A stretch of DNA of 61,502 nt, the filler included, from Diploschistes diacapsis (Eukaryota): the NCBI GenBank assembly GCA_023645945.1. It is 11 parts of 11 records of this genome, joined end to end, with 100 filler letters (N's around TTAATTAATTAA, not from the genome) between each part and the next. Parts side by side here need not be neighbours in the genome. Positions count along the whole stretch, not along the records: positions 40,375 to 43,825 come from JALAIB010001916.1; 10 more parts are not named here. One strand, 5' to 3'. The position numbers and the translations under genes were made by a program. This document shows, one piece after another, positions 29,302 through 50,923 of this stretch. Position 1 is the first letter of the stretch, and each line of letters starts with the position of its first letter. The notes under the pieces were generated by a model. The model ran no database searches. It saw only the letters and a program-made list of their open reading frames with translations, and was not told the DNA's origin.

Positions 29302-29967
29302 ATCGCTGCCTGTGGCAGGGAGACAGCAAAACCCGTTGCTGGACGATTGATCGTGGCCTCCCCATATCATTAAGCCCTAGCCTCGAAGGCTTCCGGGCCA
29401 CGTCTATTTTTCTTCAAACCGCTGTTTTTCGAATGACCCACGCAAAAGGTCTCATGAGTGACGATGTTCGACAACCCTTCAACCTTCGACCTCCTCTCCC
29501 TCTCCTTCCTCGACCGACCCTTTTTTATACCCCCACCACTTCATTTCCAACCTGCTGGCGCACTCGGCCATCAGCTTCGCAAATTTATGTCAAGCATTGA
29601 TAGAAATGGGGGGGGGNNNNNNNNNNNNNNNNNNNNNNNNNNNNNNNNNNNNNNNNNNNNTTAATTAATTAANNNNNNNNNNNNNNNNNNNNNNNNNNNN
29701 NNNNNNNNNNNNNNNNAAAATACTAGGCGATTATTAAACTTAAACGTCGCTAATTGAACCTTAAGTTCGCCAACTATAAAATCAAAAAAAACACGATTAT
29801 TTAAAAAACATAAATATATCTAATAAAACTTTTAAAGAAATTATCGTATAAACGAGAAAAATACGCGTTAAAGGTTCTTTTTTAATAATTATTTATAATA
29901 TTACTATTTAACTACGGAATCTATAGTAGCTATAGTGCTACTAGGGAGAGTCGCTTGTTCTTGCTGG

Positions 29968-30415
29968 TGTTATGATCTCTATCTCTACAACGTAGACACG
30001 AGGTATCGATCAAGGTAGGTTTGGTCTCGTATAGGAGAGGAGTGTAGGCAGGAAGAAGAAGAAGATCAAGTACGAGTCTGTATTAATTTCTAGAAGTATG
30101 CTGGATGATAGAGGGTATTAATATTGCATTGATCTATCTGTTAGGATAACATAAGGTCTGAACACGCCCGTTTTTATAGAAGTTATGGCGATGTTCTTAT
30201 ATAATCTAAAGTGATAGTTAGTCGTTGATAATAAAGCTGTCGCGATAGCGCTGTTATTGATAGAGGTTTATTATCGATAGATTTGTTTCTGATAGATATC
30301 TGTCGGTAGCCATCTATTAATCATATAATTAATTATATATAACGATAGATCGGGTAATGCTTTTTAATATTATAACGTTGTTAAGTGATTACGTCTAATT
30401 ATTTAGATCGTAATA
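29968..30415 (-). repeat. 3' LTR (about 450 bp)
   Basis: Termini TGTTATGA...TCGTAATA (RIP form of TG..CA inverted ends). Adjacent PPT complement ctatttctttctttt. First 100 bp or so shared with 39844 and 40959. Confidence 0.85.
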
Positions 30416-30507
30416 CTATTTCTTTCTTTTAATTTTGTCGGCCCGATAAGTTCCGAAGGGTAAGTATAAATATTAAATAAAAGAGAATCCTATGTCGTGA
30501 AATAACG

Positions 30508-31017
30508 ATGTCTTTTTTAATTACTCGTAATTATAGATTTGTTAATCGTATCTTTTAATTAGATAAAATTGTTGACTTTCTTTGTTTTTATTGTTTAGTC
30601 TTATATCGCTGTGTTATTATGCCGTTTATTTCTTTTTGTTGCGAAAGGTGCGCTCGTCTCGATCGGAAGAACTATATCTCGACATCTTAGGAGGTTATAG
30701 ATAAGGTACGTGTTTAGGTAGAATTTAAATTAGAATCGGAAGAGGAGAAAAGGCGAAAGCTCTTTTCTTAATTAGTAAAATATGAAGCCCGGATAGAGAG
30801 GTTCCGGAAGATTCTTAAACTAGTCGAAAAGAAATCTATCGAGTAAGCGAAATGTTTTGTCGATTAGTTGGATAAGGAGGTAGAAACGGTTGGGGACCCG
30901 AACAATAATATGGTGCTCGTGGGTAGTTTTTAGGATTTCCGGTATCTTAGCGTTCTGTCGCCTTCTTAAATCAATTGAGAATTAAGAGATGCCGACGTAA
31001 CGACTTCTTTCTTTTAG
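30508..31017 (+). pseudogene. Retrotransposon antisense ORF: Zn2Cys6-like cluster plus coiled coil (RIP-inactivated)
   Basis: 170 codons in one frame. C-x2-C-x5-C-x9-C-x2-C-x7-(C>Y), then STS(W)E..DKVR...EEEKRRKL..EARIERFRKILKL...AKCFVD(Q)L. Internal stops are all derivable from CAA/CAG/TGG by transitions. Confidence 0.75.
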
Positions 31018-31062
31018 GTTAGTATATAAAAAACTTATTTGTATGTGTTTTTTTTATAGTTG

Positions 31063-31135
31063 GATTTAGTAGTTCAATCGATAGAACGTGTGTTTATTTG
31101 ACGCGAGATCGCTGGTTCGATTCCGGCCTGGGTTA
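31063..31135 (+). tRNA. tRNA-like cloverleaf (RIP-degenerate pseudo-tRNA) inside the Gypsy 3' internal region; isotype uncertain
   Basis: GATTTAG-TA-GTTC-AATCGATA-GAAC-G-TGTGT-TTATTTG-ACGCG-AGATC-GCTGG-TTCGATT-CCGGC-CTGGGTT-A. Exact 73-nt geometry, intact B box GGTTCGATTCC, all stem defects are G-T pairs, T5 run at 31144-31148. Confidence 0.75.
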
Positions 31136-33449
31136 GTGAGGTGTTTTTAGTAATGTTTCACGACAATACCGAAGATTTCTTAGTTTTTTTCTTTTTTTCT
31201 TTTTCTTGTGAAGATGTTACTGCCTCTTTTTCGCTTCTTCTTGTCGTGATAGGCCCTTAACACGTCTTTATAGTTAATTAATACCCGTTATGGTTCTTAC
31301 GTATACTGGTCGTCTGGATATCTTTTTTATTTAATTAGGTAACCTCGAGGGTTATCGTTAAAGATTTTTTTAACTTTATATTCGGTTTCTTCGTTTGATT
31401 CGAAATAGAACGTGGTCTGAAATAATATATCTAAGTATGCTGATTTAAGTTTAAATATATGGAAAACCAGTGTTTTAAGTTTCGTATTTAGTGAGAGGAC
31501 GAGTCGGTAGGAAACCTTTAGTTATCCGTCCGTTATTTCTGGTTGCTCGTTTATAAGGAAAGGTCCGATCTTTTTATTGTTAAGCTTTTTAAAAGGTTTT
31601 AGTAAGCGAAGGTTATTAGCGAGTAAATAGACCTTATTTTCCTTTTTTAGTTGAAGATCTTTTTTAAATTGTGTTTATCTTGTTCTTTCTTAATGCTTTT
31701 TTCTTAATCGTAGTATTGTTTTAATAAATAAATCGGTATTTTTAATATCCTTTTTTTAATAATACCGACTTTTTAGTTCTTATTTGATTATTAATAACAG
31801 TTCTACCCAATTGTTTATCTCGTAGTTGACGTAATGGCGTAATATTTATTTTAATGTTTGATTTATTTTTTTCGTCTGTCTATTCGTTTGTGGATGGAAT
31901 GCTATTAAATGCTTAAATTTTGTTCCGAAGATCTGTATCATAATTTTTTAATAACTCGATATAAATAATAATCCGCGATTATTAATTATTTCTTTTAAGT
32001 GCCCGTTATGTCTTATCATTTTATCGGTTTATATTGCGTGTAACTTTTATGTATTGTAATCTTTTCTGAACGGTAGGTATATTGATTTGTTGTTAAATCT
32101 GTCAACGATTATTTAAATGGCGTCGTATTCGATATTTATTATTGGATTTCTGAATTTTGGTAGTTTTGTGATAAAATCCATTATGATTGATTACTATTAT
32201 TTCTATGGTTTGGGTATGATTTATGTAATACCGTACTTTTTGTGTGTTGAATGTTTGTTCTTCTGACAGCTTTCGTATTGTTTAATGAAGTCCGTAATTT
32301 GTTTCTTCATTCCTTTGAAATGGCAGTTTCGTTAAATAATTTTAATAGTATTCGTGATACCTTTATGTCCGTATTTCGGTGGATCATGATATTATCGTAT
32401 ATAATCTTAAATCCTCTCTACGGGAATATGTAACTTTTTTTTAATTATTGGATATTTTTCTTGTTAATCTTCGAGAATATTTATGATTGCGATAAATTTT
32501 TGAAAATCTGTTGTTAATGATCCGTTATCGTTGATCTTAAGTAACTTCGCTTGTCGTGATTTTCTGATTATATAGTCTAATCGTCGACTAAACGCGTCAA
32601 CTCGTTCGTTAGTTTTATTTGTAATTCGCTTGATCGTGAAACGATATCGTCCGAAAATTTCTGATCATCGAAACTATCTCGGGTTAAATTTTTTTGTCGT
32701 TGTGAACTTTAGTAAGTTTATATGGTTTATGTAAATTTCGGTTTTTTTTGTTTTATCTATATAGTTATACTATTCGTTTAGCGCTGCGATTATAACGAAT
32801 AATTTTTGGTCGTTTATATCGTAATTCTGTTTTATTAATAACATCTTTCGTGAATAACATGTTACTAACCGTTACTTGTCGTTACTGTCGGGTTAAAGTA
32901 AGTATGCCGTTATAGCTTGTTTTAAAGCATCGGTTTCGATTCGTATTGGTTTATTTGGATTATAAAATCCTAAGATAGGTGCGTTAATCGTAAAATCTTT
33001 GAATTTTTGGAACGTTTGTTCTTGTTTTGATGTCTATTTAAAAAATAAGTTTTTTCGTATAAGTCTAATTAATGGTTCTGTTTTTTTTAAATAGTTTTTA
33101 ATGAATTATCGGTTGTAATTAATGAATCTTAAGAAGGACTGGATATCTTTCACGTTCTTTAGGGTTAATTNNNNNNNNNNNNNNNNNNNNNNNNNNNNNN
33201 NNNNNNNNNNNNNNTTAATTAATTAANNNNNNNNNNNNNNNNNNNNNNNNNNNNNNNNNNNNNNNNNNNNATTATATAGAGATCTAAGTACCTAGTAGAG
33301 CCACAGTGAACTAGGCAGAATGCACATTAGGGCGCCATTAAATATGTTACACAATTTTACAGTAGGCAGAATAAGACATACCCTGATACCGGGGAAGGAA
33401 GATGATGATGAGTTGGGCGGGATGTGGCAGGAGGAGGGGGTGGAGTGAG

Positions 33450-37149: not shown

Positions 37150-37312
37150 TTACAATTACGATGTCCGTGTTCGTGAATTTACGGAAATATAATGTCCGTG
37201 TTAATATCCGTGTTTTAAATTTTTAGCTATAATGTCCGTGTCAATATCCGTGTTTTAAAATTTTTTATTATAATGTCCGTGTTAGTAACCGTGGCACGAA
37301 ACGGCCAGCCTA
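37150..37312. mobile_element. Partial copy (one end) of the hAT-like MITE
   Basis: gtccgtgt subterminal repeats ending in gtggcacgaaacggccagccta, matching the right end of 46747-47106. Confidence 0.8.
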
Positions 37313-37643: not shown

Positions 37644-37796
37644 GAGCAGGGGTGTGGGGATGCAACCCCCAAAAAATAAAAAAAGCAGGGGTTTAGGGGT
37701 TGCACCCCCCAATAAACCTACCCAGTTTTTTAAGCCTAGATTTTCTACTTAATATTTACTGCTTAGGAACTTGGAGGCTACTTGCCGACACGTGAT
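37644..37796. repeat. Dispersed repeat with GGGG-TGCA-CCCC hairpins (probable DNA-transposon end)
   Basis: agcaggggtgtggggatgcaaccccc twice, then agttttttaagcctagatttt...taggaacttggaggctacttgcc. Homologous to 43975-44181. Confidence 0.75.
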
Positions 37797-38209
37797 ATTA
37801 TTTATCAGGGCATAAGCATTTGCTAGTAGGGGGGACACAAAGAGATCTGGCTTGGCGCTTGGAGCGATGTCGCTTGGCATGGATACACAAATGAAATCAC
37901 TTACTTCCATCACTAAGACTTTTCCTTGTGCTGAGGCTGTGGATCTAAGCTTCCCAGGAGTTTGCGGGTGGGTTTGTTGGACTTCCCTGAGGTTAGCCAT
38001 CAAAGCTTATCGAGTCAGACATTAACTTCCACCTCCAAGTGAGAAAAAAATCATAATTCCCAGAGAATATGGGCAGAACAAGCTAATTTAGGCCAGATTG
38101 CAACACGTCTCTGCTTTTTAAAGTAGAAAAAAGCAGCTTTTCTGATCTCCTCACTCACATCCCCTTCTTGCAAACAAAGCCTACCCCATAAGACCAAAAA
38201 AAATTACTT

Positions 38210-39490
38210 ATGGCGCTCAGAGACATATCGAACTTGCAAGAGGGCGGTTTAGGAATGCCTACTTCATCACGTGAGCGAACTAAGGGTCTTCTTCTTAACC
38301 CAGGATTCAGCCTCTTGAATACCAGCACAGGACGTTTTAAGCCACCAAATGAAGATCAATGCAAAAGCATTCTAGCGCTGTTCCCACATACCTCTATCTG
38401 GTGCATAGCAACTGAAAGGAATTCGTTGGTTCTTGTATGTGACGCCCTGCCGCCTCCCCCAAGACCTGTCAAAATTGCGGATGTACCAGTCTATTGGACA
38501 ACACAATACAACGACCGTGGTTTTGCCACTGACATAAGACATCGCGGCTTTGCACCGGCTGTCATGACAGATGTTATTCTACCACCATTATCTCTTCATA
38601 TCCCAAAGAGTATTCTGAATGAGTTTGCACAATATTGCGAAACAAATGGCATTCCGCTGTACAGTCTTACCAGCTCAGTCGGTGGTTGTCTCATCGGGAC
38701 CTTGCGGGAACATAGGAACGTTATGTCCTTACCTCGATCAATCGGAAACAAGGCCTTGTATTGGAAATCTAAGGGCAATATGGAGGAACTGGCACGCAGA
38801 AACCATACACCAACGCTGGAAACACCCGATCTAACTTCTTATGGAAACATTATGCGGCCAGGGGTTGCAATCGAATGCATATCTGGCAGCGATTTACTCG
38901 GTACGACACTCGGCGTGCGAGTTATGTCCCATGACGGTGACCGGAAATGTATAACCGTAGCGGCTCATGGTTGCCCGGACCTTAATGACATATATCAGCC
39001 AAGAGTATCAGGTGGTCGCAAGATTGGGACAGTTATTAAGCACCTGGGAGACACAGACATCGGCCTGATGCAACTTGAAAATCATATCGTCCACGAGAAC
39101 GAGGTCTTCGGAAACGAATACCAAGCAACGGGATTTCGTCTGCGGGAAATTACATCTCAATCCGACGAGCCGGAATTTATCGAGCTTAACAGTCCTTACG
39201 ATGGGTACATGATGGGCACTGTCGCGCGAATTGAGTACCGGAGAATCGCAGAGGAAGGATTACACGAAGAGATAGGGGAGAAATACACATGGGTCACGAT
39301 TCTCTGGTCTCCAATGCACACACCGAGTGGTGTCCTTGTATCTCCAACAAATGGCACGTGTGGAACCCCTATTACGCTCTTGGATGGAGCTGGTCTTGTG
39401 AGCTTCTTCAGGTTTCACGACTATGAGAATAAGATGAGCATTTCTATTGCTGCTTCTAACCTGAGGAGCTTTGGGTACGACCTCGCATAA
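38210..39490 (+). CDS. Intronless chymotrypsin-fold (PA clan) peptidase-like protein with a His-Asp-Cys triad
   Basis: 426-aa intact ORF. RPGV.I...GTTLGV.V, ITVAAHG (His253), DTDIGL (Asp283), NGTCGTPI (Cys384 at the GDSGGP position). Confidence 0.7.
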   Translation: MALRDISNLQEGGLGMPTSSRERTKGLLLNPGFSLLNTSTGRFKPPNEDQCKSILALFPHTSIWCIATERNSLVLVCDALPPPPRPVKIADVPVYWTTQYNDRGFATDIRHRGFAPAVMTDVILPPLSLHIPKSILNEFAQYCETNGIPLYSLTSSVGGCLIGTLREHRNVMSLPRSIGNKALYWKSKGNMEELARRNHTPTLETPDLTSYGNIMRPGVAIECISGSDLLGTTLGVRVMSHDGDRKCITVAAHGCPDLNDIYQPRVSGGRKIGTVIKHLGDTDIGLMQLENHIVHENEVFGNEYQATGFRLREITSQSDEPEFIELNSPYDGYMMGTVARIEYRRIAEEGLHEEIGEKYTWVTILWSPMHTPSGVLVSPTNGTCGTPITLLDGAGLVSFFRFHDYENKMSISIAASNLRSFGYDLA

Positions 39491-39843: not shown

Positions 39844-40274
39844 TGTTATGATCTCTATCTCTATAAGGTAGACACGAGGTATTGATTAGGGTAGGTTTGG
39901 TCTCGTATAGAAGAGGAATATAAGTAAAAGAAGAAGAGAGAATAATTATAGGTCGTGGACTACTTTTAAAAAGAAGATTTTAATAAAAAAATAACGAATA
40001 TGTTTAGCAACGTAATGGATATATTGAAGTCTAGAGGTCTTATCCTATAAAGATATCCTACTGCGCAGACTTTTATACCCTACGGGATCCGCTAAGTCTT
40101 ATTATTAATACTACTCCCGACCGGTTTAATCAGAATTCCAGGAAATTCAGCTAAACTAAACTTTAAAGTTCAGTTGAACTGAACCCTCGATTAGAACTTA
40201 ATCGAATTTTTAATCATACCTTCTATCTATCTGCTTAATATTTCTTTATAAGCGGAATCTTTTAGTATGTATAT
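39844..40274 (-). mobile_element. LTR of the same Gypsy group, truncated by contig end, probably nested in another LTR-like repeat starting about 39672
   Basis: tgttatgatctctatctctataaggtagacacgaggtattgattagggtaggtttggtctcgtatag, near-identical to 29968 and 40959. Preceded by a 40-bp direct repeat at 39771-39843. Confidence 0.8.
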
Positions 40275-40554
40275 NNNNNNNNNNNNNNNNNNNNNNNNNN
40301 NNNNNNNNNNNNNNNNNNTTAATTAATTAANNNNNNNNNNNNNNNNNNNNNNNNNNNNNNNNNNNNNNNNNNNNTTATAATAGTTATCGTACGATCGATT
40401 TTATTAATTATTATAAAAATAATAACATCATTCCGTTCTATATATCTGTTTATTTATCGTATATCCTTCAGCCTTTTAATGTCGGATGTTTTAGATCGTT
40501 CAAGATTACGTACGGTAAGGAAATTAAGTAAATAATGCGTACGTAAATTATATA

Positions 40555-40958
40555 ACGTGTTTGACGGGGAAGTGGGCCACCCCCAGAAGTGGGCCACTTT
40601 TGCCAAGAAATATTTTAAATCTTTAATAACTCTTCGAATTTAATCGTCATTTTTGATTTTTCTCGAAATATTACTACTAGCCCAATCATCTATCATACCC
40701 GAAAAGTGCACATTGATTATGTCGGCAGTTATCCTTTTAAAGCGAATTGAAAATAACGACTCGAAAACACGTATTATGTTATCTTTCAAAGTCGGACATA
40801 ACGCAGCAAAAAATATGTTTTTTAAATATATTATTATAAGCTGATTTATGCGTAGATCTTAATAAAACTATAAAAAAACGTTTTTTCGACGCTATACAGT
40901 CGTTGTGTGGTCTTATTCTTTAAAATCAGTAGATTTAAAGAATTTTGGTTGGCGACGG
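40555..40958. mobile_element. End of a Fot1/pogo-like DNA transposon interrupted by the Gypsy insertion
   Basis: TA followed by ACGTGTTTGACGGGGAAGTGGGCCACCCCCAGAAGTGGGCCAC: ACGT start and internal 12-bp direct repeat typical of Fot1/Pot2 TIRs. Only one end is visible. Confidence 0.55.
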
Positions 40959-43825
40959 TGTTATGATCTCTATCTCTATAACGTAGACACGAGGTATTGA
41001 TCAAGGTAGGTTTGGTCTCTGGTAGAAAAGGAGTATGGAAGGAGAAGAAATAGATCGCTTATAGGTCTATACTGATTTTTAAAAAGATTACTTTTTAATA
41101 ATAAAGATAACGAATATAAATTAATCTCGAACAATCGCTAAAGATATCTATTAAAATAAACACGTAAAACACAAATAATTTTAATTAAAAATTTATATAT
41201 CGAAACCTTCGAGGAAGTATTAATATCAGCTCCCATTGTTTCTCCGGAATAAAGGAAGCGGCGACGATATCTCCTATAGAACAGAAAGAACGCTATTTAT
41301 TATTCGCTTAAAACCTATAAATCGGCGCCTTTCGCTCCAATAACTCACGTGATACACGCGTTAATGAATTCCTAAATGAATGGCTGGGACGTGATAGGTC
41401 TATTACCTGAATCGTAATATTATCTTTTTCTTTCAGCATTATCGGCCCGACAATCCGCCGAAGGATTTAATTACATAAACGAAAACCTGTCCTTATTTCA
41501 TTCTTTTATAATGCATTCCTTCACTCGTCGTTAACGTAAGGTTATATACTACAACAGAAGAAAAGAACGTTTTCGTTTTACCGACGAAATTAAATCTTTT
41601 TAATATTTCTTTAAGATAGCCTGTAATTCTTGTTTAGTTTCCGATTATCTTTACTTTATGATTCTTTTTGATGTTAACGTTGGTTCTAATAAATGTTTTA
41701 AATATATTCGTTTAAAGAGGTCTTGTTCCTTTCGCTCGTGATTTTCGTTGGACAGGATCCGAAACTAATAAGCTGTTAAGTTGTTATCTTTAGAACGGGA
41801 TCGCGATTAAAAATTTAAAGAACTTTTTAAGATATAAATAAGAATTAATAAAGAACGTAAGGTTTAGGAATTAACGTAAAAGAAAGCGATCACGAAGATT
41901 CGTTACCTTGCCTAATAACTAAAGGATGATGGCAAGAATTTATTAATAGAGGATATTCTCGTATCGGCGGATTTTTAAGCAAAATTATTCGGTCTCTGGC
42001 CTGTTATTAAAATTCCTAGAAATATAGATGTAAATTAAGACATTCTACTTAACCCGGTGGTTTTTAATATCTCTTTCGCAAGAAGGAACCGCTGTTTCCT
42101 CGAGTTAAATCAGGTATACGTAAGTGTTTTAAACTTTTTAACCCTAGTCTTAGTTGTTCTTTATGAAGGGTCCATTGACCTTATAAAACTTTATTAATTT
42201 TTTTTTGTAGTTCTTTAGGTTTTCCTTGGATTCTTATGTCATATCTAACTCTAGATATTCTTTTTACTTGATTAAGTACTTGTCGTCTTTATAATATACG
42301 ACTGCTTCGACTTCGTATTCGTTCTCGTTATTTAATTTAAAGTAGAAGATTTTCTATAAAGGTGTATCTAGGTATACTAGTTCGAGGTATCTTGAATAAA
42401 ATACTAGATATATTTTAGTATCTTTTAATAGCTTGAGTCGATAGCTGACTCGTTTAGTTTCGTCCGGTATGACGGGTTATTTATCGATAAGGAAGGGTTC
42501 GACTTTGACGTGATCTAGTTTTTTAGAGGGTCTACGTGTTTTGAGGTTATTTATGTATAAATAGATCTTATCTTCCTTCTTTAGCTGAGGATTCTTTTTT
42601 AAGATTCTAAATCTTTTAATATTATTCAGTGCCTCGTTGTTTAATAATTATATATTTTAAATCTTCTTAACTTCTTTATATCTGTTATTAAGGTAGTATT
42701 CGGCGTTCGGTAACAGTTTAATTTAATTGTTTATATTTTAATTAACGTAATATCGTAAGTATTGTTTAAAAGTTTAATTTATTCTTTCTGTTTGACCGTC
42801 TATTTATGGGTAATAAGCGTTTAAATACTTTAGCTTCGTACCGAACGCTTTTATTATGGTTTTCTAATATCTTGAGGTAAAGAGCTTATCTCTGTCGTTA
42901 ATGATTTCGTCTGGATGTTTATGAATCTTTATAATTCGATTTATTCATATATGATGTAATTATCTTACGTTGTAGTCTTTTCTGAAAGGTATGTAATGCG
43001 GTTTGTTATTAAACTTGTCTATTATGACCTAAATGTTGTTATATGAAACACCTATCATTGGATCCTTAGATATTAATAGTTTAATTATAAAGTTTATCGT
43101 GATTATCTTTTATGATTGATCTGGTTTCTTAATGGTTTATGGAATCCCGTATTGTTTATACGTAGAATGCTTGTTCTTTTAATAGCTCTCGTATTATTTA
43201 ATAAAATCCGTGATTTATTTCTTTATTCTTTCGAAATAACAGTTTCGTTGAATAATTTTAATAATATTTATAATATCTTTATATCCGTATTCCGGTGAAT
43301 TATGGTGTTATCGTATATAATTTTATATCTTTTCGGTAAGAATCTATAGCTTCCGTCGTATTATTAAATATTGTTCGTGTTAATCTTTTAAGATATTTAT
43401 AACTGTTATAAATTCTCGAAAATCTGTTATAAATGATTTATCATTATTAATCTTTAATAATTTAACCTGACGCGGTTCTTTTGTCATATAGTCTGGCCGT
43501 TTGCTCAACGCGTTAGTCCGTTCGTTTGCTTTATTTGCGATCTTTTTAATTGTAAAACGATATCGTTCGAGAATCTTTAATTAACGAAACTATTTAGGAT
43601 TAAGTTTCTTTATCGTCGTGAACTTTAATAAGTTCATATGGTTTATATAAATTTCGGTTTTCTTTGCTTCGTGAACATAGATGTATTATTCGTCTAAAAT
43701 AACGATTATGGCGAATAATTTCTAATCGCCTATGTCGTAATTAATTTTTATTAATAACATCTTTCTCGAGTAACAGGCTATCAGCCGTCACTTATTATTA
43801 TTGTTAGATTATAATAGGTATATTA
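40959..43825 (-). mobile_element. Second, divergent RIP-mutated Ty3/Gypsy chromovirus, 3' half
   Basis: Colinear with 29968-33170: RNase H (NYDIGD.KLFAII, NALSKRPDY), integrase, VKVEPFLI, chromodomain ENEYEVEAVV...YLIK(W)K.Y...MT(W)E. 3' LTR 40959-41419 with adjacent PPT. Confidence 0.92.
41511..42038 (+). pseudogene. Retrotransposon antisense ORF: Zn2Cys6-like cluster plus coiled coil (second homolog)
   Basis: 176 codons in one frame. ACNSC-x6-(C>Y)-x13-CFK(C>Y)IRLKRSC-SFRS(W)FSLDRIR...LERDRD...KIR(C)LA..L. Confidence 0.75.
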
Positions 43826-43974: not shown

Positions 43975-44181
43975 AGCAGATATTTAAGGATGCAACCCCC
44001 AATAATTTACTTTAAGCTTTAATCACGCAGCAAGGGTTTGAGGATACAATCCCTATAATAAAAAAAGCAAGGGTTTAAGGGTACAAACAACCCCAATTAC
44101 CTCCCTAGTTTTTTAAGCCTAGATTTTTTGCCTAGTTCTTACTGCTCTAGGAACTTGGAGGCTACTTGCCCGACATATGAT
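43975..44181. repeat. Second copy of the GC-hairpin dispersed repeat (more RIP-mutated)
   Basis: ggatgcaaccccca, three hairpin units, then tagttttttaagcctagattttt...taggaacttggaggctacttgcc. Confidence 0.75.
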
Positions 44182-45144
44182 GACTATACGTGCTTAAGGA
44201 AAATTCGAGTCGAAGACTAGATACCTACAGACCCTAGTTATTGTTTCCTTTAAGTTTTTCTACTATAGTGTTAGTAAAAGAATCCGAGGATTAAGTCTTC
44301 AGCTTTACTATTTCGACTCTTACATCTGGCCTGCTACACTTTGTACACCAGCAATCCGCCATGTTTCAATTTTCGGAGGAAACCAAGGTCCGTGAATGGT
44401 TCACATCTTTCTTGCATTATGATCGGTACGATAAAAATTTCGGCTGACATCTCCAGGAACGCATTGCGAAGGCAATAGATGTTTCGCGAATCGCAATTCA
44501 CTAGTAGGGACCTTTATCCGACCCGATAGCCTGTGCTGAACCAAAGCAGTGGTTATTTGCCGCTAATTCTCTATCTTGGTTCGTGTTTTGCGACACTTGC
44601 TATGACTTCTGTTGACTTAAAGTCAGGATATACACGCAGCCAACCAAAGCCTTCTTGGATACGGTTTGTCTATATTAGCCATCCATACCTTTCTTACGGA
44701 GCACAGGCTATTCTCTCCACTCTCTTGAAATATCTCATCGGGCAGTTGGTCAGCACAAGGGGAGGCTCGATTGCCTTCGCCTAAGAACAAGATTGGTTGA
44801 TTGAGCGCTGGGCATAAAAATGGTCTGTCACGTTAGCCTGGGACGTTCTCAGATCGTGCAGGCTCTGCTATACTTTACCATCTGTTGACTACTGCAGATG
44901 TTTAAAGAAAATGGGTCGTATACTTCTCTTATCAGGCAGGGCTACATAGCACTATGTGAATAATTCCAATAGTTATTCGATGTTCTTAACTTTAAGACGC
45001 TCGTACACAATGCATTACATAATAATTATTTGAATGATGTCAATTTTGAATATCTGCCTAAGCATCAAAGACTTCTAATCATAATCTTAGGTTTGCTACT
45101 TTCTTATGGATAGTCAATTTTTAACTCTTCTTTGATTAGGTTCT

Positions 45145-46180
45145 ATGAGTGCTCCCCAAATCAATCAGCAGCCGCTTGTAGAAGCTTATGCGGGACTTGC
45201 AGCAGGTATTGCGGCAACGCTTGTGGCTCATCCGCTTGATCTTGTGAAAACTCGCCTTCAAGGTGATTTTAGTTTTCTGACTTGGGACACGTTACTAATG
45301 AGGTAGCGTTAAGTCAATCGAGAGGCACGTGTCGCAAGATTTGGAGGTGCTTTTCACGTTCTACAAAGTATAGTGGCGAGTGAAGGAGGATATCAAGCCG
45401 TCTACCGCGGCCTGACCCCAAATCTTGTCGGGAATTCTGCAAGCTGGGCCCTGTATTTCCTCTGCTACGACCAAACAAAGGCCTTTGTTTCTATTCTTCG
45501 GAACGGTGCTGAGCTTTCGTATTCTGATTTCTTCTTAGCATCCGGAACTGCTGGTATGCTTTCTCGTTTGAATTTGAAGCGTAATGAATAACTCTTTGTC
45601 AGGTGCTCTTACCGCAGCATGTACGAATCCAATATGGGTAATCAAGACCCGAATGCTTTCAACGTCAGCCAATTTTAGGGGCGCCTATCGCTCTGTACAA
45701 GATGGTGCTCGCCAGATTTATCGGTTTGAGGGCCTACGCGGTTTTTACAGGGGCCTTGTGCCTTCTTTATTTGGTGTCTGCCACGGTGCACTACAGTTCA
45801 TGGTCTACGAGAAGATGAAACTTCTGCGAAGAAATCAGAAAGATCCAGAAAGACGTAGACTGACAAATTCAGACTATGTTGCCCTGAGCGGACTGAGTAA
45901 GTTGGTGGCCGGTACTGCAACCTACCCGTATCAGGTTGTTAGATCCAGACTACAAATATACGACGCCGAACGAACCTATCGTGGGCTACTTGACGTAATT
46001 ACTCAAATCTCAGGGGAGGAAGGCGTAAGAGGCTTCTACAAAGGTCTTGTCCCCAATATGCTTCGCGTCTTGCCGAGCACCTGCGTCACGTTTCTAGTTT
46101 ACGAGAACATGAGGGCAATGTTTATTCGCAAAGGCTTAGGTCGCTGCACGCAACGGAACCCACCACGCGAGGCAAGGTAA
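45145..46180 (+). CDS. FLX1: Mitochondrial carrier, FAD/folate carrier (Flx1-like), 3 exons
   Basis: Three carrier signatures HPLDLVKTRLQ, NPIWVIKTRM and YPYQVVRSRLQ; YRGLTPNLVGNSASWALYF. Introns 45263-45313 and 45554-45602. Confidence 0.88.
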
Positions 46181-46746: not shown

Positions 46747-47106
46747 TAGGCTGGCCGTTACTGACACTGACACGGATATTAACAGTGTTAGTGTCCGTGT
46801 TTTAGATTTTCTTGCTGCGGTATCCGTGTCCGTGGATTTACGGAAATGTAATATCCGTGTTAATATCCGTGTTTTAAAATTTTTTATTACGGTGTCCGTG
46901 TCCGTGTTTTTATTATAGTATAATTTCCGTGCCAGTGTCCGTATTTTAAAGATTTTTATTACGGTGTCCGTGTCCTTGCTTTTATTATAGTATAATGTCC
47001 GTGTCAGTGTCCGTATTTTAAAATTTTTTGTTGCGGTGTCCGTGTCCGTGCTTTTACCGCAGTATAGTGTCCGTGTCAGTGTCCGTGGCACGAAACGGCC
47101 AGCGTA
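46747..47106. mobile_element. Complete non-autonomous hAT-like MITE (360 bp)
   Basis: 13-bp TIRs TAGGCTGGCCGTT / AACGGCCAGCGTA (1 mismatch). 8-bp TSD ctttaaat / cttttaat (7 of 8). Interior built from GTGTCCGTG repeats. Confidence 0.82.
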
Positions 47107-47475: not shown

Positions 47476-50400
47476 TAAGAACTTTATAATTATTATATTA
47501 TACGCAAGCTAGAAACCAGTTCCGGAGTTCGAAAAATTACTTACCGATTTTTTAATAGATCGTCCGTAATTACGAATATCTTCTATTAATAGTTAAAAGA
47601 TAGCAAGAATTTAATCGAAGACATTCTATCGTTAAAAAAAAGGAATTTAAAAATAACATTCAACCTAGATCAATTAAAGAAGAACGTCGATTAACGCCAT
47701 TTCCGTTAGAATAAATGACCGACAAATCTTTTGTCTAGATCGAAATTAAGATCTTTATTAAGAAGTATTTAATATAGATATCTGACCCGCTTCTTAATAA
47801 TATCCCATTAAATAGACCCGGATCCGCTCACTATTAGCGAGCTCGATTTTAACCTCCGAGCACTATCAACGAAAGATCTAGATTAAGTCTGCCGCATCTG
47901 CAACCTCGCCACATACTATTAGGTCAACCGAAAGAGCCTATGCTTATTCCGTTTCTAACGGCTTTAAGAATTATAACTATATTCGACAAATAATTATCGA
48001 GAATACCTACTATCGGAAAACAGTAGAACATAACGCCTACTTAAAGAAACGATATTATACGATCGTTAAAAGATTAAATAAAAGAAATTTTTTAAAGAGA
48101 AATAAATATTTTATTAAACAGCTACGAGCGTCGGAAAAATCGACGATCATAAAACCTATTAGAAGATCTTCTTGAAAACGATCCGCCTTCGGTTACAAGC
48201 AAGCGTCAGTTTGATGCTCGCACGATCGGATATTTCGATCTTAATTAAAATACCTTAGTTATCGAAGTTAAAGATAAGTATAACGTGTATCACGACCCTT
48301 ACGCCTTTGCCGAAAAACTTCGCGTAAAACTAATAACCGAAATTAATAAATTCTTAATATAAAATTTAAATACTTATTTGCTAAAAACCGCCAATCGATA
48401 ATATATAAAAAAAATTAATAAAATTATAAAAATCGAACTTCGCGCTAACGACGTCGAGATATGATGCGACAGTTTAATTACTCGTTTTAAATAAAGTTCG
48501 AGTAAAGCTTTATTTAATTTTAAATTTCTACGATTCGGGATTCACGACATACGTGTTAATAAAAACTTTTTAGAATTTTTATTAAACTTTAAGTATTTAA
48601 CGATATATGCCGGCATCTTTTATAACGAGAAAGCATAAACATTAGTAACCTATTAGTATTTAAATGTATAACTACGTCGGGACATCAGGTTATTAAAAGA
48701 TAATAACGTTAATTAATCTAATCTTATAGATCTAATTCGTGAAGTAAAAGACATCTAAATAAAGACTTAGAGTTTATAATCGAGATTAAATCGCGATTAA
48801 TAATAACCTCCTCGCCGCCAGTTAATGCAGCTACAAAATCTACAAAATAAACCATACCGACCGCTACAATCGTTTAATTTAGATTAATATAACAGACCGA
48901 ATCAGCGAGTTTCATACTCTTTTCAATTATTTTCTTCTTCTTTTTCTTATAATCTATATTATGACAAAAATGTTATTAGAAGCATAAAATACGGCTACCG
49001 CCCTCCGGTTCTCTTTCGTCCTTTCCCTTCTCAGTCTCATTCTTCTTACTATAACGCACCAAGTTCTAATTCTTTTCAGAGCTTTTAGAACAGAATTAAT
49101 TAGAGTTCGATGTCGCAATCATTAACTATACAGGCATCCGTAAAGACCCTGCCCGGTGGACGACAGCAGTTAAACATAACCGCCCTAAACGTCGCATAAT
49201 CTAACAATAGATACGGGAACTATAATAACTATAATAACAATAATCGGGGTACTTATATTACTAATATTAGTACTTACGGGACGAATAAAAGACCTATCCG
49301 AGCCTATAATACTAAGACAAATAAAAATAATAAACCAGGGATACCTTCGGAAGAGCAGTTAAGAAGCTACATCCAGAACAATTAAAAGAAAGCTACTTAC
49401 TATCAAAAGCTCGCCAATAAAGAAACATTAGAACAACAATCTCTCGATACTAGAAAACCCACTACGCCGCCGAAAAACAATCAAGATTTCTATAATATAA
49501 ACGTCGGCTGGTCGGATCCAAAACCGAAAACAAAAGTCATATATAAGAGTTACAACAAGGCCTGGCCATCCAAGATTAAATTACATACCCATCTTAAAGC
49601 AAACAAATGTTAAAATAAGAAAATAACATTAAAATACTTGAAATATATTAATAAGAAGAGTATCTCGCCGATTACCACAACTACGAAGGATCTTATCGTT
49701 CCTAGTTCTGCGACTTCTACGAGCTTTGACGGCGTCTCGACGGCGATTACTAACATTTCTACGAAGTCTGCCTCCACCATCATCTCGCCGACCTAGGTAG
49801 AATCATATTACCATATCGACACGATCATTAAGTCGGATGTAAAACCTAATTAGAACCCGGGCTTCGGATTTAAAGATTATAAATACGCGATCGTATCTAT
49901 AAAACTAAAAATCAACGGTAAGATATATAGCTTTTATTTAAACACCGGATATATTATAAGCTTTATAAATAGAAAGTTCCTATATAAAATAAAACCTAAA
50001 GTAAAGGTACTTACGATATCGATCCCGATAGAAATGACTAGAATAAAAAAATTAAATATTCGATTACGAACTATATCATTTTAAAATTATACTTCCTGAT
50101 TAACGACGGTAGATTAGCGCAGATCATAAGAGAATTATATATCGTCGATAACTTACGAGTAAACGTGCTTATAAGGATCGACATATTAGATTTAAAACGG
50201 TTTTTGATAAACTTTTAAAGATACATTATTATTATTGGAAGTTATACCAATTTAGAAGTTTTAATCTTAATTATAATAATAAAAAAGATTACGATTACAA
50301 TCTTCGCTGAAAATACCTCGACGATACCCCCTAAGACGGTCATATTAATGCCTATTACTGGTCTAAAGAATGTACCTTTAACACTACCATAGAATCGGAA

Positions 50401-50923
50401 TTTTCTATTTTAACCTAGACGACAGCGACATTTTTCGGTATACGCACACGTGGTCGACCATAGTACCAACGCGGTACTAATACGAAACGATATGAATGTT
50501 ATATACACCCTATCGAATCATGTTTAACTAAACCTAATTATCGATTATAATAATAATGACGCCTACGTTACCGATACGAGCTTCAGAGATCTAGCGAGAT
50601 GTCTTTCTATACAATACGAATCTAAAGCTATCTTAACAGACCCGAAGAAGCTCGAAACTAGATTAAATAACGAAATTATAACATACGGACACGAGCACGA
50701 AGTAATAGAGTTATAAGGATTAATTGATAGCTATCTTAATTTATTTATTAACACCGGTAATATCAATATACTAAAGCGACTAAAGATATCACTAATTAGC
50801 GATTAACGAGAGAAATATAACGCTAATACGGCGAAGATATATCTTATTAATAACCGAGATAAGGCCGTAATTGACGAGATCTTCGGTAAATTATAGGATA
50901 AGGACCGAATGGAGTGGATTAGA
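47476..50923 (+). mobile_element. RIP-mutated Ty3/Gypsy gag-protease-RT start
   Basis: gag IGYFD...VYHDPYAFAEKLR...(W)CDSLITRFK, then C2HC-like (C)KS(C)NKAWPSK.KLHTHL, protease L(D)TG...SFI(D)RKFL and VLI(G)IDIL, and RT start KIY...RDKAVIDEIFGKL.DKDRMEW. Confidence 0.85.

Follow-up and report, generated by a model that had tools for sequence, protein, structure and literature searches.

Location and layout of the antisense gene

The stretch of Diploschistes diacapsis DNA analysed here (the window, 61,502 nucleotides) begins with a 26-kb contig, after which come ten shorter ones, each ~3.45 kb, joined by spacers of N. Two of the short contigs carry relics of related long terminal repeat (LTR) retrotransposons, each with a small open reading frame (ORF) antisense to the element, between pol and the 3′ LTR. 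The type B element, with which we are mainly concerned, lies within positions 40375-43825 (G000:C1020), and the first of the two, the type A element, within 29717-33170. Comparison with other copies in this genome shows that each gene type is paired with its own repeat cassette in the U3 region of the LTR, and suggests that the gene may encode a regulator of that LTR. Both window elements are AT-rich, with the following features:

40959..41419, minus strand: 3′ LTR of the type B element, 461 bp
41193..41199, minus strand: TATA-like box pointing in the sense direction of the element (putative function)
41241..41345, no strand: type B form of the variable U3 repeat cassette, which clusters by ORF type
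41346..41419, no strand: CACGTG box and inner LTR end, of which type B has its own version
41420..41510, no strand: spacer from LTR to ATG, holding the polypurine tract, a GGCCCGA motif and a TATA-like word
About 41424-41433, minus strand: polypurine tract
41444 and 41474: conserved GGCCCGA motif and TATA-like word respectively, both ahead of the type B ATG
41511..42038, plus strand: antisense accessory gene, ORF type B, killed by repeat-induced point mutation (RIP), 12 internal stops
41622..41726, plus strand: six-Cys cluster (2-6-13-2-6), with Cys codons at four columns and Tyr codons at two
41739..41930, plus strand: counterpart of the 64-residue helix that spans residues 81-144 in the intact relative P0004, bounds approximate
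42186..43787, minus strand: 3′ part of pol, with RNase H, integrase and a chromodomain-like end (starting at 42320)
29968..30415, minus strand: 3′ LTR of the type A element, 448 bp, with the type A cassette at about 30217-30321
30508..31020, plus strand: antisense gene of the type A element, 3′ end approximate
31246..33159, minus strand: 3′ part of pol of the type A element, with RNase H, integrase and SH3

The type B element lies on the minus strand, where Pfam RNase H and integrase matches accompany a pol match running from 43787 to 42186; this pol is RIP-killed and is ended by the contig boundary. The LTR has TG...CA ends and a polypurine tract is present, only the 3′ LTR falling within the contig. 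RNase H is followed by integrase in both window elements, and the full order protease, reverse transcriptase (RT), RNase H, integrase is seen in the intact relative L065. Pfam Chromo is matched above its cut-off in L057 and L065; the type B copy, itself without such a match, follows the L057/L065-type chromodomain region up to the end of pol. On these sequence features we assign the host element to the Ty3/Gypsy chromoviruses.

Homology of the two antisense frames

The type B frame extends from ATG to TAA over 176 codons, the length given in the first-pass annotation, but it is not open, its 12 stops being spread within it. It starts 92 nt from the LTR, compared with 93 nt in the type A element (ATG at 30508), in agreement with the antisense position ~90 bp from the 3′ LTR originally described for both. 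Columns 38, 41, 48, 62, 65 and 72 of the frame read TGT, TGT, TAC, TGT, TAT and TGT; TAC and TAT had been interpreted as lost Cys codons, and across the type B sister copies Cys codons are indeed found at all six columns.

At the protein level the type A and type B frames align with a score of 84, against 31±5 for shuffled controls, 0 of 2000 of which score as high. The mean score for the antisense frame pair is 87, whereas the other 35 frame pairs give 27-45, and a profile comparison (8 versus 12 copies) yields a probability of 96.9 and an E-value of 1.3e-10. We conclude from these alignments that the two frames are homologous as proteins. The conservation of motifs proposed earlier extends to the six-Cys cluster as such, but not to its spacing, which is 2-6-13-2-6 in type B and 2-5-9-2-7 in the type A element. 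The two elements had also been described as not alignable in their DNA; this is true of the ORF, for which 402 of 500 shuffles score equally high, but not of the integrase (68.5% identity over 1413 bp) or the outer LTR end (81.5% over 130 bp).

Mutational decay and selection

Among five copies of the type B ORF, C:G sites vary at 57 of 58 positions in CpA, 74 of 86 in CpT, 38 of 44 in CpC and 33 of 74 in CpG, a pattern that we take to be that of RIP. In the gene frame of 12 type A copies, 84 of 85 stops sit where a sister copy encodes Gln, Trp or Arg, whereas the other five frames each hold 51-66 stops with no such sister codon. For the five type B copies, sister codons explain 38 of 48 stops in the gene frame, with 29-40 unexplained in the other frames.

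Transversion-bearing columns in the 12 type A copies are distributed 14/6/37 over codon positions 1, 2 and 3 (chi-square p 1e-6); the 3/2/4 columns of the five full type B copies are too few to judge. In intact pairs from outside this genome the ratio of nonsynonymous to synonymous substitution rates (dN/dS) is 0.03-0.27 in eight of nine cases: 0.027, 0.11, 0.10 and 0.16 in the pairs with dS <1, and 0.15-0.27 in four saturated pairs. The ninth, L064/L066, has a ratio of 1.6 on few changes. The type A columns and the low ratios of the intact relatives both uphold the earlier proposal of selection preceding decay, and we conclude from this codon-level signal that the antisense gene was under purifying selection before RIP. 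The two sets of own-genome matches that were inspected (20 and 25) include neither an intact gene copy nor a host gene, and those free of stops are only short, truncated pieces of known copies. All gene copies found in the D. diacapsis genome are dead.

Relatives in other genomes

A full HMMER search gives 39 matches, the best of which, P0004, has 176 residues, is 37% identical over 163 of them and retains all six Cys; further protein searches yielded 19 and 82 proteins. Those with names, from Fusarium, Verticillium, Colletotrichum, Metarhizium and others, are annotated either as hypothetical or, by automatic labelling, as Zn(2)-C6 proteins, some being present in multiple copies within a single strain. 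At 20 of 26 metagenome loci an integrase or chromodomain lies directly behind the gene on the opposite strand, and at three more a short tail carries a chromodomain motif; the last three are truncated within the gene by contig ends. The gene is therefore antisense behind the chromodomain at all 23 testable loci. In L057 and L065 the adjoining pol encodes RT, RNase H, integrase, SH3 and chromodomain. In 14 of 19 outside elements, gene and pol overlap at their 3′ ends, over 34-97 nt. All ORF types begin 76-128 nt from the LTR and are homologous across cluster and helix. The same place and orientation at every testable locus, and the lack of an intact host copy among the own-genome matches, favour the first-pass view of a module of the retrotransposon lineage over a chance capture.

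In three relatives (L078, L080 and L081) cluster and helix are separated by a GT-AG intron of 47-54 nt whose phase is the same in all, and the exons are colinear with the intronless L079. Because the intron is on the gene strand, an antisense mRNA is probably made.

At eight of nine loci examined (L057, L059, L060, L061, L062, L063, L067 and L079) the strand opposite the antisense gene carries a gag-like frame, which starts 420-580 nt upstream of that gene. These may represent tandem elements with a common LTR, or assemblies collapsed at the LTR.

Exchange of the gene among pol backbones

Distances between ORFs correlate overall with those between integrase-chromodomain regions (rho 0.62 over 27 of 34 rows; 0.75 over the 16 outside rows), but at shallow depth the trees are incongruent, and over nine clade representatives the ORF-pol rho is 0.35, with p about 0.07 (134 of 1999 permutations). 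Thus L063 and L064 have 95% of pol in common and only 44% of the ORF, while in the D. diacapsis genome type A is found on two pol types and a single pol type carries types A, B, C and E. The first-pass annotation had named incongruent trees as the mark of independent captures of host genes, and to the letter that mark is present. It is the observation that speaks for such repeated captures of host zinc-cluster genes. The homology of all types over cluster and helix, their uniform distance from the LTR and the missing host copy speak against them, and the codon-level selection does so both for captures and for the related notion of a non-coding antisense RNA with an incidental frame. We regard either possibility as very improbable and largely refuted; the shallow incongruence instead points to one homologous module that has been exchanged among pol backbones.

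The predicted protein

In the relatives the gene encodes a basic arm, a six-Cys cluster, a long helix and an acidic tail. Among 81 intact-looking relatives the N-terminal arm is net basic in 70 and the C-terminal tail net acidic in 78; in 78 the tail is acidic, aromatic and leucine-rich. Such a composition resembles that of an activation domain. The gene does not fit an env-like third ORF, which would lie in sense and carry a transmembrane segment: it is antisense, and a hydrophobic window above 1.6 occurs in only 8 of the 81, the other 73 having no membrane-like segment.

The model of P0004 (mean predicted local distance difference test score, pLDDT, 85.7) contains a predicted helix of 64 residues at positions 81-144. 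The best 14 Foldseek matches are all Zn2Cys6 regulators, although the fold matches are weak, and the leading Atlas cluster bears the automatic name Zn(2)-C6 (0.91). Among the proteins compared with Pfam Zn_clus, none reaches its curated cut-off; 7 of 21 match at E<=1 (best 0.0019), and P0001 and P0003 have no match. Basic residues are concentrated in the second loop of the cluster. The position of Gal4 Lys18, taken as four residues after the second Cys, is occupied in the 81 relatives by Lys in 4, Asn in 13, His in 13 and Gly in 30. The base-reading residue at this position is Asn in Pho7 and His in Put3 (PMC6265462). The Zn(II)2Cys6 pattern CX2CX6CX5-16CX2CX6-8C, as worded in a passage of PMC2447501, fits 40 of 64 relatives and the Cys columns of type B; types A and D of this genome, with X5 between the second and third Cys, fall outside it.

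Pairing of gene type with an LTR repeat cassette

The D. diacapsis genome holds six ORF types (A-F), shuffled against pol. Read toward the gene, the LTR comprises a shared outer part, the sense TATA-like box, ~100 bp of short repeats that form the cassette, a CACGTG box and the inner end; in most types a second TATA-like box, pointing at the gene, lies between the CACGTG box and the inner end. For 30 copies of five ORF types (five copies with interrupted LTRs being left out), the cassette cluster agrees with the ORF type in 29, with an adjusted Rand index (ARI) of 0.89, compared with 0.39 for the inner LTR end and 0.37 for the spacer. The sixth type, identified later (10 copies), has its own cassette and an inner end and spacer common to other types. 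Over all six types, with 46 of the 50 own-genome copies used, cassette and ORF type match in 43 by clustering and in 45 on inspection, since foreign insertions interrupt L099 and L011, which prove to match. The sole true mismatch, L046 (G000:C3368), joins a type A cassette to a type D gene and is likely a single-crossover recombinant. When copies are reduced to 16 haplotypes the ARI of the cassette with ORF type is 0.58 (0 of 5000 permutations), and those of the two segments between cassette and gene are 0.03 and 0.01. Gene type and U3 repeat cassette are paired one to one. One further copy, L098 (G000:C3009), may belong to a seventh ORF type, again paired with a cassette of its own; the contig end cuts through this cassette, and the copy is therefore excluded from the count.

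Divergence between types was measured in transversions, since RIP makes none. The ~170-bp middle block between cassette and gene differs by 2-5% among types A, C, D, E and F and by 13.5% between these and type B; the equivalent of 41346..41419 is common to the five. Cassette and gene differ by 14-20% between types, against a shuffled baseline of 18%. Simple linkage is insufficient to explain the pairing, because the segments nearer the gene should then track it best, and the reverse is observed.

The outside loci behave similarly, the cassette tracking the ORF type and the outer LTR the pol type; in L063 and L072 the inner LTR end derives from another type. In 9 of 22 cassettes the top 6-mers are repeated 4-9 times, above the level of 200 shuffles. 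No CGG pairs are evident in the cassettes.

A candidate regulator of its own LTR

These observations suggest that the gene could specify an element-encoded, type-specific regulator of the LTR, probably an activator, a proposal that we rate at about evens. In the mechanism that we envisage, a group of ascomycete Ty3/Gypsy chromoviruses would encode a small transcription regulator antisense between pol and the 3′ LTR, transcribed inward from that LTR or from the short spacer. The predicted protein would bind zinc, dimerise through its long helix and recognise the repeats of its own cassette beside the sense TATA box, and its acidic tail would switch on those elements that belong to its type. A recombinant joining a gene to a foreign cassette would amplify poorly, so that pairs stay matched. 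The fuller lock-and-key version, in which zinc-cluster transactivator and U3 operator cassette form mutually specific types (at least six here), move between gag-pol backbones as matched pairs and divide related elements into separate regulatory groups, is a tentative one, its chances falling a little short of even.

Several points weigh against this proposal. The canonical recognition Lys is mostly absent and the fold matches are weak; L046 breaks a strict pairing; type B stands outside the shuffle of the middle block; at shallow depth the ORF tree departs from that of pol, and over the clade representatives the two correlate weakly; and conversion of the middle block may provide an alternative route to the pairing. 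The general lack of the recognition Lys and the weak fold matches, with the nuclear accessory roles that passages of PMC7264820 propose for plant antisense ORFs, are what would be expected of a functional protein that does not read the cassette but acts through protein contacts, for example in nuclear import, integration targeting or anti-silencing, the pairing then arising from linkage together with middle-block conversion. We consider this rather unlikely. Template switches are expected in the near-identical middle block, and a single switch there produces a mismatch; yet only one is seen in 46 copies, although five types have the block in common. Moreover, 26 of the 81 relatives have at the recognition position the Asn or His that reads bases in Pho7 and Put3 (PMC6265462).

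Type-specific binding could equally serve repression, the protein limiting its own element type as a form of copy-number control or of exclusion among related elements. Such a role fits the gene-cassette pairing just as well and suits the adjacency of the cassette to the sense TATA-like box, and the overlap of gene and pol 3′ ends would lend itself to antisense interference. We think it improbable, in that the tail of most relatives resembles an activation domain and escape from repression would favour mismatches, of which L046 is the only true one.

Comparison with known systems

Antisense ORFs between pol and the 3′ LTR are known, with their function stated as unknown in the passages concerned of PMC7264820, and include brtn of Boty, which is also mentioned in passages of PMC4227169 and PMC8365987. 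Boty brtn provides a positional precedent, compared here by description, as these passages give no sequence or domain; nor do the passages on brtn in the three papers refer to a pairing with LTR repeats. The supplement text of PMC8365987 gives no match to brtn, and neither Botrytis nor Sclerotinia is among the named matches, a minority, of the 19 and 82 proteins. The chromovirus antisense zinc-cluster family may be the brtn family. The aORF-3R of plant Gypsy elements (Grande gene23, RIRE2, Retand and PvRetro13) has the same position and orientation; for Grande gene23 an own promoter and a nuclear protein are reported, and a regulatory role is proposed for aORF-3R (passages of PMC7264820). As described in those passages, these plant-hosted ORFs have no clear similarity to known proteins save SMC and transposase-28 domains. 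They differ from the present family in having no zinc cluster, the word 'zinc' having 0 occurrences in PMC7264820.

The Gal4-type Zn(II)2Cys6 factors (Gal4, Leu3, Put3, Hap1, AlcR and Pho7) resemble the chromovirus proteins in their six-Cys spacing, in the helix after the cluster and as the weak top fold matches. Unlike them, the chromovirus proteins are only 160-200 residues long, have Lys at the Gal4 Lys18 position in just 4 of 81 relatives, are associated with cassettes that are not evident CGG pairs and, in types A and D, carry a five-residue loop from the second to the third Cys.

Foamy virus Tas and the Tax protein of human T-lymphotropic virus (HTLV) 1 act on U3 repeats. These regulators of complex retroviruses, encoded near the 3′ LTR and acting on the element's own LTR, offer a working analogy in which homology is not expected; the present regulator would instead have a fungal zinc-cluster fold and come in swappable specificity types. 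HTLV also has an antisense gene expressed from its 3′ LTR, as noted in a passage of PMC7264820.

No description of the zinc cluster or of gene-cassette pairing was found in the literature searched. What is new here is the presence in one genome of six ORF types shuffled against pol, each with its own LTR cassette and with a middle block shared across types. LTR retrotransposons are generally taken to rely on host factors for their transcription. Type-specific regulators whose binding cassette is predicted in advance would open the function of such antisense genes to direct test, naturally matched and mismatched pairs serving as controls. If the proposal is correct, many of the small models annotated as 'hypothetical' or 'Zn(2)-C6' in the genomes of Fusarium, Verticillium, Colletotrichum and Metarhizium would probably be transposon genes and not host regulators.

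Other features of the window

The outer end of a further LTR of the same family lies at 39845-40000 (87% identity to the LTR end of the type A element over 95 bp) and is apparently truncated or solo. A small element of tandem GTGTCCGTG-type repeats at 37160-37310 and 46750-47105 is likewise present in L006, L021, L032, L037 and L103, and is inserted within several retroelement copies. A second short dispersed repeat occupies 37645-37795 and 44029-44180, with 80% identity between the two contigs. The heavily mutated, coding-like relic at 47476-50923 has long Asn/Thr-rich stretches; its three plus frames have no Pfam match, nor does it resemble the Gypsy gag or pol sequences with which it was compared. 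At 38192-39490 an intact frame of 432 codons, with no Pfam match, is flanked by mutated repeats; to our eye its C-terminal half looks like a trypsin-type protease. Ordinary host genes occupy 2314-29301 and 45140-46180, encoding PX/Vps5, acetyltransferase, TFIIS, Hsp90, GH76, Bys1 and mitochondrial carrier proteins.
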